A DNA stretch of 64,000 nucleotides from an uncultured Gemmatimonadales bacterium (GTDB lineage Bacteria; Gemmatimonadota; Gemmatimonadetes; Gemmatimonadales; Gemmatimonadaceae), in assembly GCA_963850905.1 (NCBI GenBank), contig CAWKMU010000003.1, positions 2,688,001 through 2,752,000 of the forward strand. The letters run 5' to 3'. Of this stretch, positions 692 through 8,010 are shown piece by piece. The first letter of the stretch is position 1. Each line of letters opens with the position of its first letter. A model generated the notes under the pieces. That model was given only the letters and a program-made list of their open reading frames with translations, was not told the origin of the DNA and made no database searches. A program made the position numbers and the translations under genes.

Positions 692-816
692 TGAACACCC
701 TTCACCGTTGAAGTTACCAGTGAGTGACGTTCGACCGCCAAAGGGTTGGAAGGCGATTGTTGTGGCCCGCGAACGGCGCGCGACGGATTGCGAGTTGGCG
801 TCGCCGAACCGTCATT

Positions 817-1057
817 CGGCGGGTAGGGGCGACGCAATGCGTCGCCCTCCATCCCCGCACCGCATGCACCGGCATCGACGTGGGTGCCGTTCTTCTTAAT
901 GTCGGGCGGCGTAGCCGGCGAACGGCGGGTAGGGGCGACGCAATGCATCGCCCTCCATCCCCGCGCCGCATGCACCAGCATCGACGTGGGTGCCGTTCCT
1001 CCTAATGTTGGGGGGCGTGGCCGGCGAACGGCGGGCGGCGCATTGCGTCGCCCCTAC
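817..1057. repeat. Cluster of GTAG-type REP palindromes: two 106-bp tandem units plus an inverted third REP
   Basis: GTAGGGGCGACGCAATGC(G/A)TCGCCC at 823-847 and 929-953 (period 106) and an inverted copy at 1033-1057; the sequence between copies is also near-identical. Confidence 0.85.
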
Positions 1058-1113
1058 CAGCCGTATTGCGGTTTCGTGGCTGAGCGCCGGCGTCGCGTTC
1101 TGTGAATCGTCGG

Positions 1114-1773: not shown

Positions 1774-1847
1774 GGCAGGGTAGCTCAGCTGGTTAGAGCA
1801 CGGCACTCATAATGCCGGGGTCGCGGGTTCGAGTCCCGCCCCTGCTA
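1774..1847 (+). tRNA. tRNA-Met (CAT), probably elongator; CCA not encoded
   Basis: Acceptor stem GGCAGGG/CCCTGCT, D arm TAGCTCAGCTGGTTAGAGC, anticodon arm CGGCA-CTCATAA-TGCCG, T arm GCGGG-TTCGAGT-CCCGC, discriminator A. Confidence 0.93.
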
Positions 1848-2043
1848 TTTGGGAAATCGCGGGGCCGCGCCGGCTTGCACGATTTGGCGCCAAGGGCCAG
1901 CCGGCAGTGGCGGCGCTTGGCATGTCTTCGTATCCTCTGGGCGCATGATTGTCCGCCCGGAGCGCAAGCGCGCCGGCACTGTTCACTGCCCCTGACCGGG
2001 TTGATCGTCCCAGGGAGGCACGGTCCACCGTCTGTCACGTAGC

Positions 2044-5000
2044 GTGCGACCTGCGGCACGTCGCCTCGACCGACCGTTTGCCGCGTTCCGTGGGCTAGCG
2101 GGTTATCTTCTCGCTGCCGTTCTGTGCCAGGGGTGTAGTCGGCCATCCGGCGCCCGGAGTGTGGCGCTCGAGGAATGCGATCCGGCGGCATATATCCGTT
2201 GCATTCAGCAAGCCGCCGTCCTTTCAATTCCTGTCTCTGGAACCGGGCTGGCCCTTAGCTATTCGAGCCAGTGGAAGTCCGACGGCGCTGGTCCTGACAA
2301 ATGGGAGTCGCGTCGACTTGGCTTGGGCGGCTGGTCGATCAACGTCCTGGAGAGTTATGACACGGCGGCTCACGTGCTGGCCAGTGGGGATGGAACGTGG
2401 CGCTTGGTGCCGAGCGTCAACCTACCGGCGGGGGAGTATGCGGTGCCGAGCTTTGATGGCTCCACGGCGCACATATTCGATCGCGAGGGCCGCCACGTTC
2501 GCACAGTCGACGGGCGCTTGGGAACCCAGCTCGCAAGCTTCGGCTACGACACGGCCAGCCGCCTTGCCTCGATCAATGGATACGTTGGCGGTCACCCGGT
2601 TCATCTGGTAGTCGAGAGGGGCCCGAACGGGGTTCCGCGTGGTATCTCGGCTCCGGACGGCGGGACGACCACGCTGCAAGTGGATAGCGCGGGCGATCTG
2701 GTGCGAATCACCGACCCGGCTGGCAATGCTATTCGCGTTGGATGGAACGCCCAGGGCCTGGTCGCGTCCGAAACGGATGCCTTGGGGGCGACCCAAAGGT
2801 TCACCTACGATGACGCGGGGCGTCTGGCGACATTTACTGACGCCGACAGTGTCGTGCAGCACCTCGAGCGCAGGGCGGCTCCAAACCGGGTCGAAATCGT
2901 CGCATCGACGTCTCTTGGCAGACGGTGGGTCTACCGTGTGGAGGCCGCTGCCGACGGTAGTCGGCGCACGTTGATCGCACCCAATGGAACTACGAGCCTC
3001 GAGACCCTCGATGCCGAGGGCAGGCGCACGATCACGTACGCCGATGGGACGAAGTGGAGTGTGGGAGCGGCTCCGCACCCGACCTGGGGACGCGCGGCAC
3101 CACTGTTGACTCCAATGGTGCTGACGCGAGCTGATGGAGTTATCTCGAGGCAAGACTTGAAAGCTTCGCTCCATTCGCAGGGTGGTCTTCCCTACGTCCT
3201 CGCGGGCTCGATGACGACTACCGTGAATGGGCGATCATGGGTCGAGGCGATTGATCCCGCTCATTTGACCACGACGTGGACCGATCCAGCTGGCCGGCTC
3301 ATAACGACCACCTTTGACCCCAACGGACACATTCTCGAGCACTCTGCACCGGGCGTAGCACCACTTTCGTACGAGTATGACAAACTTGGCCGGCTCGTCA
3401 CTGTGATGCGTGGGCTCGGCAACCTCGCCGAAACGACGCGCTACGCGTACAACGCACGAAGCGGGCAGATCACCCTAACCCGGCCGGATGGGAGCAGGGA
3501 GCAGACGTTCGTTGACCGAGTTGGCCACATCGTCAGTGTGTCCCCGGGCGACAACGCCGGCGCCACCATCAGCTATGATGCGGTCGGCCGTCTCGCGGCT
3601 GTTCACAGGGCGGTGGGGATGATGTTCACCCTGGGAACCAGTAGCGCGGGGCGCCAGACGGCGTTCGCACCCCCAATGGTGCCAGGTGATTCGTCAGTCG
3701 AAACGCGCTCTTATGACGTCGACGGTCAACTCGTGTCGATCTCTGGGCTAGGTCAGCGGTCAGTCAACGTCACATATAACGAAGCAGGTAAACCTGCTGC
3801 CTGGACCTTCGATCGCGGAAGCGCCGCCGCGTCCTACGACCCCCGCTCCGGACTGACTACTCGCACCGTCGATCCCTCGGGAGTAATCACGACTTACAGT
3901 TACGTCGGAACAATGCCGAGCCTCTTGACATGGTCGGGACCAGTCAGTGGCTCGGTCTCAGAGGTGTTTGAAGCCGGAGAGCGGCCGGCAAGAGAGGTGG
4001 TGAACGGCGTCGACAGCTTGGCATTCGCCTACGATCCGGGCGGAGAACTCATAGGCCTCGGTCCGTTGACTCTGAGGCGAAGCGCCACGACCGGCCTTGT
4101 GGAGCGCGCAACGGTTGGCGTCATCGAGACAAACCAGCAATTCGACGCGAGCGGACGGATGACGCGCTCGGTGACGACCGTGCTCGGCCGGACCGTGCTC
4201 GACGATCTGTACGCGCGTGATGCATTGGGTCGACTTCGAACGGTCAGGGAGTCGACGGCGGACGGCGCACCATCGGAGACACAATATGGCTATGACAATG
4301 CCGGGCGGCTCGCGTCAGTCCGAGTCAATGGCCGCGCGGTCGAAACCGATAGGTATGATCCGGCGGGCAATCGCGTCAGGAGTACGGGGGTGCTCGGAAA
4401 CGTGTCGGCCAGTTACGACGACCGCGATCGATTGCTGACGTGGGGCGAGCGCCGCTACACGTGGAGCGCAGATGGCAAGCTACAACGTCGAGTCGACGCC
4501 GCCGGTGTAACCTCGTTTGCATATGATGACTTCGGAGCGCTTCGCGGGGTGACGCTTCCCGATGGCCGCGTGATCACCTATCTGGTCGATGCCACGCAAA
4601 GGCGCGTCGCTCGACAGGTTGCGGGCACGCTCTCCGCCGAGTACCTGTACCGACCCGATGGCGCGGTGGCGGCGGTAATCGATTCAACGGGGCACGGTGG
4701 TTCGCATCTTGGTTACGATGGGGACGGACACCTGGCTCTCGTTGTGCGATCGGGAGTCGCCTATCGCGTCATCACGGATATTGCCGGAAGTCCCCGCCTG
4801 GTCATCGACTCACAGACGGGGCGCGTGGTCGACGCGATTACTTACGACGCGTGGGGGGGCGTCATCCGAGAGACCGCGCCCGGATTCATCCCGATCGGGT
4901 TTGCCGGCGGACTACGCGACGCCTACACCGGTCTCATACGATTTGGCGCTCGCGACTACGATCCTGGTTCTGGTCGATGGACCGGTGCAGACCCACTTCG

Positions 5001-7290
5001 CTTCGCTGGCGGCGACCTCAACCTATATCGCTATGCGGCTGGCGACCCGGTCAATCGCGTCGACCCGACGGGGCTTCAGTGCGCCGAAACGGGGCGATCC
5101 TCGACCTGCTATCAGCCGAACAATGGTGGCAACTCCAACTTCCTGCCGGCTCCGTCCGGCGGCGGCTGGTGCATCGGCTTGGGGAACTGCTGGAACCAAG
5201 TGCCGCCGAGGAATCTTCCCCCGGAGCAGCCGCCAGCCCCGCCAACACCACCTCCTGGTCCAGGCGGCGGCGGCGGTGGCAAGCCCTGGTCCTGTTCTGG
5301 GTTCGTCTGTACCGGGCCCAATAACGCGACCTGTGTGTTTGGCAGCTGCGGGTACGGCCCCGGGGGATTTCAGTGCTGGGGGTTCGTCTGCAATGGCCCC
5401 GACAACCAAACCTGCGTGTTGTGCTCGATGGGCGACACGCACGTGGTGACAGTCGGCGGGACCCACTTCGACTTCCAAGCGGCAGGGGAATTTCTCGTTG
5501 CCGCCTCCGCTGACGGCTCAACCGTGATTCAGGGCCGCCAGGAGCCCGTGTCGGGCGGGACCAATGTCACCTTCAACACCGCTGTGGCGGCAAGCGTCAA
5601 TGGCGATCTGGTAGGAGTTTACGCGAGAGAGCCGGCATTTCTCGTGGTCAACGGTGCGCCAATGAGTGAGACGAGCACGGATCGGCGTCTGCCCCACGGC
5701 GGGACGGTCGAGCGTCGTGGTGCTCTCGTCGTCCTGAGCTGGCCGAACGGCGATCAGCTCGCCATCACTCGGACGGCAAACACGCTGAATTACAGCTTCG
5801 GCGAGGTTGGCGGAGCCACGCACACGATGACAGGCCTGTTGGCCAGTGCACACGAGGACGAACTCGGCGCCGTCACGGGACGCAATGGAACGACGCTCCA
5901 GCTATCGGATCCGATGTTCCATTCAAAGGTATACCAGCAGTTCGGCAACAGCTGGCGGATCAAGCAATCCGAGTCACTTTTCCACTACTGGCCCGGAGAG
6001 AGCTCGGCCAAGTTCACAGATCTAAAGATTCCGTCGCGTCCAGCAACGGTTTCGTCGTTGACGGCGGCCGTGAGCGGCAAGGCCGCGTCTGTCTGTCGGG
6101 CTCTTGGCGTGCATCGCCAGCCGCTACTCAATGATTGCATCTTGGATGTTGGAAAGACCGGAGCTCCAGACTTCGCAACTGCGGTCGCCACAATCGCCGC
6201 CAACTGGACCCAATGGCGAGGAGAGGCACCACTGCCCGTGTCAGCGCACCCACCGGCGGCCGCGCCTGGCTCAGCGTCTACGACTGTCCCCGAGGCTGTG
6301 GTGCCTGATCGCTACAATATTGCGACGGGAGACAGCGTTGCGCCTGACCGGCCTGTGCGAGGGGCGGGGATCATCACGCATCGCGGACAAACGCAGACGT
6401 ATTCATTCATCGCGAAAGCTGGTGAGATCTGGTATGTCGGGATTGGTCCTTGTAGCGGCGCTCCGATCAGCTTTGATCTCCGCGATCCAAAGGGCAAATC
6501 GATCGCAAGTCGGACCGGCTGCGGTGACAATCTCGGGCCCCTAACGACCGGCGACAGCGGCACCTACAGCATCGTTGCGACCGCCGACAGCGCTGCTCGC
6601 TATGCGTTCAGTTTGCGCGCTACGCGGCTCGACAGCTATAGGATCGCGATCGGCGATAGTGTTGGCTCGAACCGTCCATCTGCAGGAGCAGGGGTCATCG
6701 CCACTCCTGGCGAGCGACAGTGGTTCACTTTTTCTGCGACACGGGGGGCGATTGTCTACGTCAAGGTCGGCCCGTGCGACGGGGCGGCAATGAGTTTCGA
6801 TCTCACGACGGTGAGCGGTGCGTTCGTCGGCGGCAAGAGTGGTTGCAACGACCTTGGCCCGATGACGCTACCAGCCGGCGGCGCGTACCGAATCACGACC
6901 AGTGCTGGTCCGGGGACGGCAAACTACAGGTTTGTGCTGTTGGGGACCACTCTAGACCGGTACACGATCAAGATCGGAGACACCGTGTCCCCGGGTCATC
7001 CCACCGGCGGAGGTGGTATCATCAGTCACCTAGGGGAACGCCAGTGGTATTCATTTTCAGCGCCCGCAGGCGCCACTGTGACCGTCAAGGTCGGACCCTG
7101 TGCCGGGGCGCCAATGACCTTTGACCTCGTGAGTGAAGGCGGTAAATGGCTGGGCGGCAAGGACGCGTGCGGCGACTTTGGTCCGATGAGCCTGCCGTCC
7201 GCTGGAACATATCGCATCGTGACTAGTGCTGACCGTGGCAGCGCTCGCTACACTTTCTCGCTATTGAAGGCGACCGCGGGCCTGCAATGA
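2044..7290 (+). CDS. YD/Rhs-repeat (teneurin-like) protein with VWD domain and three C-terminal PPC-like repeats (1748 aa)
   Basis: Signal/lipobox-like start (LLAAVLCQG-C); YD repeats; Rhs core GFAGGLRD...FGARDYDP...RW...YRYAAGDPVNRVDPTGL; VWD-like CSMGDTHVVTVGGTHFDFQAAGEF; three 108-aa repeats starting at 6307, 6631 and 6955. Confidence 0.9.
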   Translation: MRPAARRLDRPFAAFRGLAGYLLAAVLCQGCSRPSGARSVALEECDPAAYIRCIQQAAVLSIPVSGTGLALSYSSQWKSDGAGPDKWESRRLGLGGWSINVLESYDTAAHVLASGDGTWRLVPSVNLPAGEYAVPSFDGSTAHIFDREGRHVRTVDGRLGTQLASFGYDTASRLASINGYVGGHPVHLVVERGPNGVPRGISAPDGGTTTLQVDSAGDLVRITDPAGNAIRVGWNAQGLVASETDALGATQRFTYDDAGRLATFTDADSVVQHLERRAAPNRVEIVASTSLGRRWVYRVEAAADGSRRTLIAPNGTTSLETLDAEGRRTITYADGTKWSVGAAPHPTWGRAAPLLTPMVLTRADGVISRQDLKASLHSQGGLPYVLAGSMTTTVNGRSWVEAIDPAHLTTTWTDPAGRLITTTFDPNGHILEHSAPGVAPLSYEYDKLGRLVTVMRGLGNLAETTRYAYNARSGQITLTRPDGSREQTFVDRVGHIVSVSPGDNAGATISYDAVGRLAAVHRAVGMMFTLGTSSAGRQTAFAPPMVPGDSSVETRSYDVDGQLVSISGLGQRSVNVTYNEAGKPAAWTFDRGSAAASYDPRSGLTTRTVDPSGVITTYSYVGTMPSLLTWSGPVSGSVSEVFEAGERPAREVVNGVDSLAFAYDPGGELIGLGPLTLRRSATTGLVERATVGVIETNQQFDASGRMTRSVTTVLGRTVLDDLYARDALGRLRTVRESTADGAPSETQYGYDNAGRLASVRVNGRAVETDRYDPAGNRVRSTGVLGNVSASYDDRDRLLTWGERRYTWSADGKLQRRVDAAGVTSFAYDDFGALRGVTLPDGRVITYLVDATQRRVARQVAGTLSAEYLYRPDGAVAAVIDSTGHGGSHLGYDGDGHLALVVRSGVAYRVITDIAGSPRLVIDSQTGRVVDAITYDAWGGVIRETAPGFIPIGFAGGLRDAYTGLIRFGARDYDPGSGRWTGADPLRFAGGDLNLYRYAAGDPVNRVDPTGLQCAETGRSSTCYQPNNGGNSNFLPAPSGGGWCIGLGNCWNQVPPRNLPPEQPPAPPTPPPGPGGGGGGKPWSCSGFVCTGPNNATCVFGSCGYGPGGFQCWGFVCNGPDNQTCVLCSMGDTHVVTVGGTHFDFQAAGEFLVAASADGSTVIQGRQEPVSGGTNVTFNTAVAASVNGDLVGVYAREPAFLVVNGAPMSETSTDRRLPHGGTVERRGALVVLSWPNGDQLAITRTANTLNYSFGEVGGATHTMTGLLASAHEDELGAVTGRNGTTLQLSDPMFHSKVYQQFGNSWRIKQSESLFHYWPGESSAKFTDLKIPSRPATVSSLTAAVSGKAASVCRALGVHRQPLLNDCILDVGKTGAPDFATAVATIAANWTQWRGEAPLPVSAHPPAAAPGSASTTVPEAVVPDRYNIATGDSVAPDRPVRGAGIITHRGQTQTYSFIAKAGEIWYVGIGPCSGAPISFDLRDPKGKSIASRTGCGDNLGPLTTGDSGTYSIVATADSAARYAFSLRATRLDSYRIAIGDSVGSNRPSAGAGVIATPGERQWFTFSATRGAIVYVKVGPCDGAAMSFDLTTVSGAFVGGKSGCNDLGPMTLPAGGAYRITTSAGPGTANYRFVLLGTTLDRYTIKIGDTVSPGHPTGGGGIISHLGERQWYSFSAPAGATVTVKVGPCAGAPMTFDLVSEGGKWLGGKDACGDFGPMSLPSAGTYRIVTSADRGSARYTFSLLKATAGLQ

Positions 7291-7395: not shown

Positions 7396-7436
7396 CTCAT
7401 AATGCCGGGGTCGCGGGTTCGAGTCCCGCCCCTGCT
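7396..7436 (+). repeat. att site: duplicated 3' half of tRNA-Met
   Basis: CTCATAATGCCGGGGTCGCGGGTTCGAGTCCCGCCCCTGCT, identical to 1806-1846; no tRNA 5' half upstream. Confidence 0.9.
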
Positions 7437-7662
7437 GTTCTGCCAAGGCTTGCGACCAGTGTCAGTTACGGGCCTTTCTGCATCCGTTTCATCGGGTGCG
7501 ACCGATGATATCGGTGATGCTGACGATGTCGCCGCCGAAATCCAACGCGGCATGTTCGTGCCGGCGTGCATAGATGCCACTGTCTTGCTACGAGGTGCCT
7601 CTCCTTTGAGCAGACCTGGCTGGCTTCGGCCCCGATCAGCCCAGCGCCGGCGATGAGTTGAA

Positions 7663-8010
7663 CTAGCGGCCGCTCAGCTTGAACTCCCAGCCCCATTCGT
7701 TGCCGCCATCCTTCATATCAGTGATGAATTGGGTGAGGTAGGACGCCAGTTTATCCGGCGCAATCTCTTCCCCGTCGTCGTTGACGAACGAATTCCCCGT
7801 TCGACGTATGCCATAAGATCCCGCAAGATCCGGCGCCGTCACGGCGCACAGCTTGATGTTCGCCTCGCCCAAGGGCTTGGAGAAGGAAAGACTCTTTCCC
7901 GACGCATCGCAGAAGACGTCAGTCTGGGTTCCCTTCTGAACGGTTACCATGAGACTCACAAGCTTCGGGAGATTCGAGTCTATGATTCTCCATGCCTCGC
8001 GTTCATTCAT
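7663..8010 (-). CDS. Hypothetical protein (115 aa)
   Basis: ATG preceded by GGAG; Lys/Asn/Asp-rich composition unlike the GC-driven shadow ORFs; no family recognised. Confidence 0.65.
   Translation of the reverse strand: MNEREAWRIIDSNLPKLVSLMVTVQKGTQTDVFCDASGKSLSFSKPLGEANIKLCAVTAPDLAGSYGIRRTGNSFVNDDGEEIAPDKLASYLTQFITDMKDGGNEWGWEFKLSGR

Follow-up and report, generated by a model that had tools for sequence, protein, structure and literature searches.

A plug-only teneurin-like shell with a VWD-PPC tail too large to be caged, in an apparently undescribed family of predicted bacterial lipoproteins

How does a teneurin-like shell, which in bacteria encloses a small cargo, accommodate a tail that is too large to be enclosed? 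The question is posed by a gene at positions 2044-7290 (forward strand) of a 64,000-nucleotide stretch of DNA from an uncultured Gemmatimonadales bacterium (assembly GCA_963850905.1, contig CAWKMU010000003.1, positions 2,688,001 to 2,752,000; we refer to this whole stretch as the window and number features from its first letter). The gene is a single open reading frame (ORF) of 5,247 bp and 1748 amino acids (aa), and its product combines a predicted lipoprotein signal, a plug-only teneurin-like shell, a VWD-C8 unit, and three PPC-type domains. Bacterial teneurin-like proteins (TLPs) are described as an invariant FN-plug/NHL/YD superfold, with a cargo of ~15 kDa wholly hidden in a shell that has no exit (Raoelijaona et al. 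2026, PMC13018210). Reviews of bacterial TLPs likewise state that nothing indicates a C terminus that leaves the shell (PMC6425310). We propose that in this protein a teneurin-like toxin carrier has become a non-toxic, releasable, self-cleaved surface adhesin or display protein whose tail is threaded through the shell wall, a reading that we hold with about as much doubt as belief.

The shell is of the teneurin/TLP type and not that of an ordinary Rhs protein, as the preliminary description of this DNA had held. The features on which that description drew were all recovered in a check of the sequence: the ORF, the LGLGGWS motif (2317-2337), the 17 aa between the end of LASGDG (aa 117) and the start of PSFDGS (aa 135), the DPTGL motif (5062-5076) with its 737-aa tail, and the GPC...(G/A)C repeats. 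A Pfam scan placed RHS repeats and TEN_YD-shell above cutoff and gave no match to DUF6531 at E 0.1; this domain is also missing from the precomputed domains of the 50 close homologs described below. The closest solved relative is BiTLP (9PT5/9IFO; E 5e-96), ahead of animal teneurins (1e-38) and type VI secretion system (T6SS) Rhs proteins (5e-30). An AlphaFold2 model of the shell (aa 40-1239; mean predicted local distance difference test [pLDDT], 79.6) gave a Foldseek TMq of 0.70 with BiTLP versus 0.34-0.52 with T6SS Rhs proteins. The absence of DUF6531 and the weaker fold match led us to reject an ordinary DUF6531-type Rhs protein.

The protein is a member of a family. A search with aa 40-420 returned at least 50 close homologs among the 120 matches listed, with 98-100% coverage and 38-54% identity; 47 of the 50 are 1546-1834 aa long, and the three shorter ones appear to be truncated or frameshifted. 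In all, the VWD-tailed family comprises 112 records from several phyla. The family accounts for ten of 78 genome loci (by record titles from Terriglobales, Acidobacteriaceae, Acidiferrales, Dormibacteraeota, Chloroflexia, Limnocylindrales, Anaerolinea, and Gammaproteobacteria) and for most of 80 metagenome loci. Contigs assembled from short reads of soil (four runs, two studies) cover the gene piecewise with few differences, although no single piece spans it. Together with the 50 homologs, which share an identical and unbroken domain order, they exclude an assembly chimera, and an assembly or frame artefact was rejected on the same evidence.

What remains of the teneurin fold is the plug and the shell. 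Plug segment 1 (2170-2271, aa 43-76) and plug segment 2 (2293-2412, aa 84-123, LGLGGWS...GDG) are both identified by alignment to TLP loci, and the YD shell (2434-5076, aa 131-1011) is full length, with a Pfam TEN_YD-shell score of 108.9 bits (cutoff, 50) and a median of 880 aa in the family versus 878 aa in ordinary TLPs. In animal teneurins the plug has two sources, a stretch inserted into the FnIII domain and another that extends beyond it (PMC5851990). Here, FnIII itself is absent, with the two plug segments linked by ~9 aa, versus 121-160 aa in ordinary TLP loci. The NHL domain is absent too, since plug segment 2 is joined to the shell by ~9 aa, versus 286-475 aa. In the alignment to BiTLP, aa 87-129 match residues 885-927 weakly and aa 111-1026 match residues 1243-2159, such that the BiTLP NHL domain (929-1255) is skipped. 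With both plug segments kept, FnIII and NHL cut out, and the shell complete, the protein is a plug-only TLP shell. It had initially been thought that NHL and most of the FN-plug were gone; NHL and FnIII are indeed missing, but both plug segments are present.

The predicted structure agrees with this account. The shell model superposes on BiTLP 9IFO with a Z score of 37.7 and 2.1 Å over 938 residues (model residues 1-968 on BiTLP 712-2140), and the plug is thus present in the model, given that the superposition begins at BiTLP residue 712. Animal teneurins follow at Z ~30 (3.2-3.4 Å) and mosquito SGS1 at Z 15.4. The family also defines the minimal plug that can seal a YD shell. Two plug cysteines, C45 (equivalent to BiTLP C719) and C53, are invariant in the family, as are several other Asp and Gly positions in the shell. 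Beside C719, BiTLP has a second cleavage site, G723|S724, which maps to C45-D-P-A-A-Y in the query; the serine of this G|S site is replaced by A-Y in the query and retained in only 1 of 51 aligned members.

The tail has a mass of 75.7 kDa and, from residue volumes, occupies ~89,700 cubic Å. This is about twice the published BiTLP cavity of ~44,000 cubic Å (PMC13018210), and a fully caged tail was rejected on this ground, as the preliminary description had anticipated. Complete tails in the family reach 939 aa. The tail model (aa 1012-1748, mean pLDDT 81.2) is poor over tail residues 1-107, which the fold search barely covers. Behind them lies a VWD domain with a C8-like helical unit (5425-6213, aa 1128 to ~1390), recognized by profile and fold. 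It matches the VWF D assembly at Z 23.6 (2.9 Å, 239 aligned residues) and VWF/mucin-type assemblies generally at Z 18-24, and a profile of nine family VWD-C8 regions matches FCGBP (E 7e-29). Pfam VWD gives no score on the query and exceeds its cutoff in 6 of 15 scanned homologs, so the VWD-like domain first reported stands on homologs, profile, and fold. The unit starts with GDTH, not with the self-cleaving GDPH; across 94 members the start is DPH in 35, DTH in 31, EPH in 27, and DIH in 1, so that Asp-Pro is found in 35. The C terminus is made of three 108-aa PPC-type beta-sandwich repeats (6307-7278, aa 1422-1745), 38-55% identical to one another and each with one Cys pair in the GPC...(G/A)C pattern. 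By fold they resemble PliG (Z 12.6) and the collagen-binding PPC domain of collagenase (Z 12.2). Pfam PPC is above cutoff in one homolog (P0043), and family members carry one to four such repeats. The fold search of tail residues 108-731 found no toxin fold, in keeping with the earlier expectation; the only toxin-related matches in it are binding domains of PPC-like type, from enterotoxin and Vip3/Cry proteins (Z 8-10), in a listing whose gaps exclude no fold.

The VWD-C8 module is not confined to these proteins. Its profile matches 6,057 representative proteins at E 0.001. Of the best 150 matches, 147 were new, and 125 of these have no Rhs core. A myxobacterial vWD domain was called the first bacterial example in a 2025 paper (PMC12419801), and neither vWD nor Willebrand occurs in the 300,000 characters of text covered of the 2012 polymorphic-toxin survey. 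The present family places a barely described bacterial domain in a defined context.

Between shell and VWD unit, the protein is probably cut. The Rhs-associated core (4843-5076, aa 934-1011; TIGR03696 in NCBIfam, 74.6 bits) carries R970, D983, and D1007 at the spacing of BiTLP R2103, D2116, and D2140, and this autoprotease triad, which the preliminary description had not mentioned, is complete in 51 of 51 aligned members. Since the triad is intact throughout, the tail is probably severed from the shell, with a predicted cut after L1011. The other possibility is that the chain stays uncut, as in animal teneurins, and that the protease residues have a structural role only; the protein would then be an adhesin that remains tethered for good, or an envelope protein of the periplasm. 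Two distant shell-VWD-PPC proteins (P0241 and P0267, one sequence each) lack the protease residues and yet keep an intact frame and tail, and several other Asp and Gly positions in the shell are invariant too. We nevertheless consider an uncut form very unlikely for the family at large, because three catalytic residues are held at BiTLP spacing in every aligned member, whereas the uncleaved teneurins have no such motif. In P0241 and P0267, a strongly hydrophobic hairpin stands right before the GDPH of the VWD unit.

The stretch that follows the predicted cut (5077-5424, aa 1012-1127, 11.7 kDa, 12 Cys) lies in the position of a TLP cargo. It consists of a variable peptide, a Pro/Gly spacer, and Cys-rich hairpins, and is modelled with low confidence. 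The corresponding core-to-VWD segments of the family (94 distinct) span 65-251 aa, with a median of 115 aa, compared with 137 aa for ordinary TLP tails (n = 91), and by residue volume all 94 are small enough for the cavity. Several types can be told apart: the query's, in which Cys-rich hairpins come behind a Pro/Gly spacer, and transmembrane-like, beta-rich, and Gly/Pro low-complexity segments. Segments of the query's type are also present in P0012 and P0139, although the shells of these two are only 57-58% identical to that of the query. Two members (L009 and P0133) lack the variable N-terminal peptide, which is therefore dispensable. An ESM Atlas search with the query's segment gave no match, and one with the P0002 segment gave only leads below 0.9, to hypothetical proteins of 133-146 aa. 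In one metagenome contig, two family members (L097 and L115) lie on opposite strands, ~20 kb or less apart, with unrelated segments in this position.

If a cargo-sized stretch is retained, are the other features of a toxin system retained as well? They are largely missing. An immunity gene follows almost every TLP copy (PMC13018210). None follows the query in the window, in line with the preliminary description, and no same-strand ORF of at least 60 aa starts from -25 to +60 nucleotides (nt) of its stop codon. Under a strict rule, which asked for an ATG start and either a ribosome site or an overlap (one family locus with too little flank dropped), a downstream gene is present at 2 of 28 family loci (ORFs of 315 and 566 aa, neither of them small) versus 14 of 38 ordinary TLP loci. 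Orphan core cassettes were found at 0 of 27 family loci versus 5 of 34 TLP loci.

The second missing feature is the tether that links cargo and plug. In BiTLP this is the disulfide C719-C2216 (PMC13018210). Among ordinary and sister TLPs, the number of cysteines in the tail is odd in 82 of 88 distinct cases and in 48 of 49 of a second set (orphan cassettes included; loci L011-L079, L144-L159, and further proteins). In contrast, DUF6531-type Rhs tails have an even number in 24 of 26, zero counting as even, and the VWD-tailed family has an even number in 93 of 94 core-to-VWD segments (six of them without Cys) and 70 of 71 whole tails. We give these as counts without probabilities because related sequences are not independent. 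They suggest that a BiTLP-like plug-cargo disulfide is general among TLPs, a rule not stated in the text of PMC13018210 or in ten of its supplements; the disulfide that was surprising in BiTLP may thus be typical. Given the even tails and the plug serine retained in 1 of 51 members, the toxin-release tether is gone from the family. With C45 and C53 invariant and the counts of segment and tail even, pairing of these two cysteines with each other is the simplest arrangement. Many TLPs have a second plug Cys right after the G|S site, where disulfide exchange could take place.

These counts also bear on whether the shell is no more than a chaperone. It could aid folding or secretion of a tail that leaves fully once cut, after which the Cys-rich segment and VWD-C8 unit would form a mucin-like scaffold of the envelope or biofilm. 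VWD-C8-type units polymerize VWF and mucins, and the fold found here is that of the polymerizing units. The module also occurs in thousands of other proteins, and in Acidobacteria the gene lies near lipoprotein, zinc-ribbon/OmpA, and membrane-protein genes. However, even cysteine counts leave no spare thiol for linking chains, the bacterial VWD lacks most of the mucin cysteines, a full 880-aa shell would be costly if disposable, and P0241 and P0267 have lost the protease residues. Thus, we regard a disposable shell as clearly unlikely. The Acidobacteria cluster is a recurring one (L006, L007, L081-L085, L087, L089, L093, L100, L102, and L103). It combines several uncharacterized lipoproteins that match no Pfam family with two zinc-ribbon proteins, one a zinc-ribbon/DUF4870-like membrane protein and the other of zinc-ribbon-OmpA type, and with secreted proteins of 470-730 aa.

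We return to a tail that is threaded through the shell. In both BiTLP and teneurins, the point where the chain emerges from the Rhs core is inside the cavity. As the tail is too large to stay there, the chain has to pass through the wall or through one end of the shell. In teneurins, the exit gap lies at the equivalent of the TcB/TcC junction (PMC5851990). TcC chains start aligning at model residues 424-441, which are aa 463-480 of the query, and within the shell, model confidence dips at aa 490-549. A scan of wall divergence points to the same region: in the distant VWD-tailed members, aa 471-570 (3454-3753, forward strand) diverges more from ordinary TLPs than any other stretch, and in the close members it is among the three most divergent. 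The scan and the model make this segment a candidate exit, and the agreement is at most suggestive. A complex prediction for shell aa 43-730 with tail aa 1085-1390 scored 0.09 against a mark of 0.32 and is evidence neither way.

A sequence of events can be proposed from these features. The protein would be exported by the Sec route and probably lipid-anchored at Cys31, since the N terminus (2044-2136) passes a simple lipobox rule with an atypical box, LCQG-C. The same rule is passed by 37 of 51 aligned members, and the remainder mostly have short or truncated N termini or late start calls. Residues 43-1011 would then fold, by alignment and model, into a plugged three-layer YD shell without FnIII or NHL, and the Rhs core, its triad being intact, would cleave the chain after L1011. 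The first part of the tail would remain in the cavity, and the chain would pass out across the wall, with the exit probably close to aa 470-570. Outside it, the VWD-C8 unit and the PPC repeats would fold in the topology of animal teneurins and mosquito SGS1; for this step the size argument is firm. Finally, the cut tail, which may be held to the cell by threading alone, would bind a surface, matrix, or partner cell and could later be shed, with the VWD/PPC module facing outward in place of the NHL propeller and the N-terminal adhesin domains, which have been lost. That the segment in cage position is of a length similar to TLP cargos and to the 126-aa internal linker of teneurins supports this proposal. 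The preliminary description had suggested that the protein may be a surface-anchored, non-toxin adhesin or display version of the shell; the lipoprotein anchor is likely, and the non-toxin adhesin role is a proposal.

We also entertain, as a tentative extension, that this is an independently built animal-teneurin topology equipped with a trigger, such that pulling on or binding to the VWD-PPC part draws out the caged peptide or sheds the adhesin. If so, bacteria would have their own version of the adhesion receptors that cleave themselves and are released by force, and the apparently uncleaved P0241 and P0267 would repeat the last step of teneurin evolution.

Several observations weigh against an adhesin or display protein with a threaded tail. 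Two other stretches of the wall (aa 351-410 and 151-210) are as divergent as the candidate exit in close members, in a scan that had no formal null, and the model is unconfident over aa 987-1178, where threading is not visible. Lipid anchoring, cleavage, threading, and function are predictions. The triad is retained in 112 of 112 VWD-tailed records with a recognizable core, although a simple adhesin needs no protease. The loose rule for a downstream gene separates the groups poorly (14 of 28 family loci versus 29 of 38 ordinary TLP loci), and the contrast in tail type between NHL-less and NHL-bearing shells, given below, is essentially that of one clade. Of the 94 segments that follow the cut, 10 contain a transmembrane-like stretch and six share a beta-rich domain. 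Among 15 pairs of members with shells 80-90% identical, 53% have <30% identity over the first 40 residues beyond the cut. The last is the pattern of a polymorphic tip, and the VWDs of those pairs are still at least 69% identical. This hypervariability is as compatible with a spacer on which selection is relaxed as with a polymorphic tip.

Such signs would be expected if the protein were a delivery device, with the VWD-C8-PPC tail as the receptor-binding end in place of NHL and a caged, hypervariable, often membrane-active peptide drawn out after cleavage. The retained triad and the hypervariable tip between conserved flanks are consistent with this, and an immunity gene would not be needed where the target is a non-kin or eukaryotic cell. 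P0241 and P0267 have transmembrane-like hairpins too, and the unrelated Rhs-VWD proteins have weaker hydrophobic stretches. Precedents exist as well: the BiTLP cargo is a membrane-permeabilizing peptide of 92 aa (PMC13018210), SGS1 cages transmembrane helices and lets its tail leave by a mid-shell opening (PMC9935623), and myxobacterial vWD and Ig domains come after a putative toxin domain (PMC12419801). However, 84 of the 94 segments, the query's included, have no hydrophobic stretch, and most are rich in Pro, Gly, and Cys. The variable part is missing in L009 and P0133, an Asp-Pro able to free the peptide from the VWD is present in only 35 of 94 members, and no orphan tips accompany the 27 family loci. 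For the beta-rich type, a profile of its six segments found nothing above shuffled scores in 159 TLP/Rhs tips. We therefore consider delivery of the segment rather unlikely and continue to favour an exposed adhesin or display protein.

Was the tail gained when NHL was lost? A VWD tail is present in 112 of 133 NHL-less shells and in 0 of 83 NHL-bearing shells (all collected sequences, with nine unclassified and records partly redundant). No NHL-bearing TLP with a VWD tail was seen among eight matches of 3060-5000 aa, which is weak evidence. In a tree of 95 shells, the VWD-tailed ones are all on one side of one branch (support, 0.84), and short-tailed NHL-less shells occur at four places among ordinary TLPs. 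By this placement NHL loss is recurrent, and so not unique to the family, and the VWD tail is the mark of one clade. The tree is unrooted, because 11 ordinary Rhs outgroup sequences came out split, and it is compatible both with a loss of NHL and with a primitive plug-only shell. The short-tailed NHL-less shells (tails of 70-340 aa) are L013:5191-9258, L033/L034:5206-9216, L037:5107-9438, L056:2048-6004, L143, L144, P0299, P0372, and P0280; in those inspected, from Acidobacteriaceae and at L037, the G|S site of the plug is preserved, and by the ORF rule no gene stands directly downstream of them.

The same layout also appears to have a separate origin. In three giant Rhs proteins (P0164, P0167, and P0385, the last named from Nitrosomonas marina), an Rhs core is followed by 83-132 aa, a VWD domain, and a tail of 780-1300 aa. 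Their shells are not of the TLP type (P0167 has DUF6531), and they contain Calx-beta, cadherin-like, and PKD domains. As the three are unrelated to the family, an Rhs core followed by VWD seems to have arisen more than once. We found no paper on these proteins.

The query gene occupies an island at a tRNA gene. A tRNA-Met(CAT) gene (1774-1847, forward strand; ARAGORN) holds the left copy of a 44-nt direct repeat (1806-1849), and the right copy (7396-7439, forward strand), 98% identical over 44 nt, is a duplicated 3' part of the tRNA. The 5,590 bp between the repeats are filled by the gene's 5,247 bp, which leaves no room for an integrase; overlapping alternative frames aside, it is the only ORF of at least 80 aa (ATG, GTG, or TTG start) in the island. 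The site is empty in a genome of the same genus (G004), with the same genes on both sides, and in G002 the same repeats enclose an integrase-like gene (below the Pfam cutoff). The family gene was found in none of 40 relatives searched; of four weak matches, three (G003, G012, and G021) come from other Rhs proteins, and the fourth is in G025. In its own genome it is single copy, and its GC content at third codon positions is 0.68, compared with 0.73-0.84 in seven of eight long neighbouring ORFs. We infer from the repeats, the empty site, the absence in relatives, the single copy, and the base composition that it was acquired recently and without an integrase of its own.

Among relatives of the host, the tRNA gene appears to be a favoured site of integration. 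In several of G001, G002, G005, G006, G007, G021, G033, and G035, 3' duplicates of this tRNA-Met (window 1774-1849 and 7396-7439) lie a few kb away, and the cargo differs where inspected (G002 and G005). Linkage to tRNA genes is not a family trait, given that 46 other family or sister loci and six other TLP loci include none beside tRNA-Met (0 of 52) and six beside any tRNA gene (6 of 52). In Chloroflexota and Dormibacterota records the family gene follows a LuxR-AAA regulator and an SCO4226-like gene. Scans of the query locus for promoters and terminators stayed at chance level. The island is flanked by two conserved small genes without a Pfam match (7663-8010 and 59-691, both on the reverse strand), syntenic in G004, and window positions 700-1100 contain a repeated, palindrome-like intergenic sequence that is also present in G004 and in contigs of other organisms. 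Where the window has A, the short-read contigs have G at 2575, 2983, 3114, 3675, 3912, 4297, 5122, 5563, 5661, 5884, and 6130; 11 of 12 such places are in a C-A-ATG context, several change Asn to the Asp of the family, and the catalytic residues are untouched. These may be systematic long-read errors beside a methylated motif or strain differences; the genome-wide excess of CAATG is slight (1.12).

The family was invisible to the survey of PMC13018210, whose search needed all three domains. Our literature searches, with subscription papers outside their coverage, found no description of a plug-only shell with a VWD/PPC tail. The impression in the preliminary description that the architecture is new thus agrees with these searches, but it is the architecture of a family and not of a single protein, and family status, the triad, the hypervariable residues after the cut, the recurrence of NHL loss, and the VWD tails on unrelated Rhs shells all go beyond what that description had noted. 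Bacterial lipoproteins of this kind apparently have not been described. With a tail outside the shell and the tether lost, they make the conversion of a caged toxin into an exposed adhesion protein a question that is testable in bacterial proteins, in both cleaved and apparently uncleaved forms, and they parallel the conversion in animals of the same shell into a cell-adhesion receptor.

Compared with known systems, the family overlaps only partially with each. With BiTLP and other TLPs (9IFO/9PT5) it shares the plug and three-layer YD shell, the Rhs triad, a predicted lipoprotein signal in many members, and a hypervariable stretch after the cut. It differs in the absence of FnIII, NHL, TIP, TTR, and N-terminal adhesin domains, in the loss of the plug serine, in tails of 57-95 kDa (560-939 aa when complete) instead of ~15 kDa, in even instead of odd cysteine counts, and in largely lacking immunity genes and orphan tips. 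It is therefore not a TLP as defined, for want of FnIII, NHL, a cargo of that size, and an immunity gene, and in its proposed topology it resembles teneurins and SGS1. DUF6531-type Rhs toxins (RhsA 7Q97, Tse5, and Tse15) likewise have YD repeats and an Rhs core, and Tse15 has a cleft in its wall (PMC11461821); the query lacks DUF6531, matches their fold less well, has predicted Sec/lipoprotein export, and has no immunity gene. The D assemblies of VWF, MUC2, MUC5B, and FCGBP share the fold (Z 18-24) and the G-D/E-P/T-H start with the tail, whereas in the query there is a single unit with few cysteines and no Asp-Pro, fused behind an Rhs shell. Mosquito SGS1 (8FJP; PMC9935623) has an Rhs shell, an active-type protease, a caged segment, and a mid-shell tail exit; it is eukaryotic and differs in a Tc-sized shell with propellers and outer receptor domains, ~230 aa of caged helices, and a Tox-SGS end. 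Animal teneurins (Ten2 6FB3 and Ten3 6FAY; Jackson et al. 2018, PMC5851990) have the same shell, their internal linker is similar in length, and the domains that come after this linker must lie outside; by analogy a non-toxic adhesion role may be shared. Teneurins, however, keep FnIII and NHL, are uncleaved, and have a transmembrane helix, EGF repeats, and an ABD and Tox-GHH end, whereas the query has none of the EGF repeats, NHL, ABD, or Tox-GHH and ends instead in VWD-C8-PPC.

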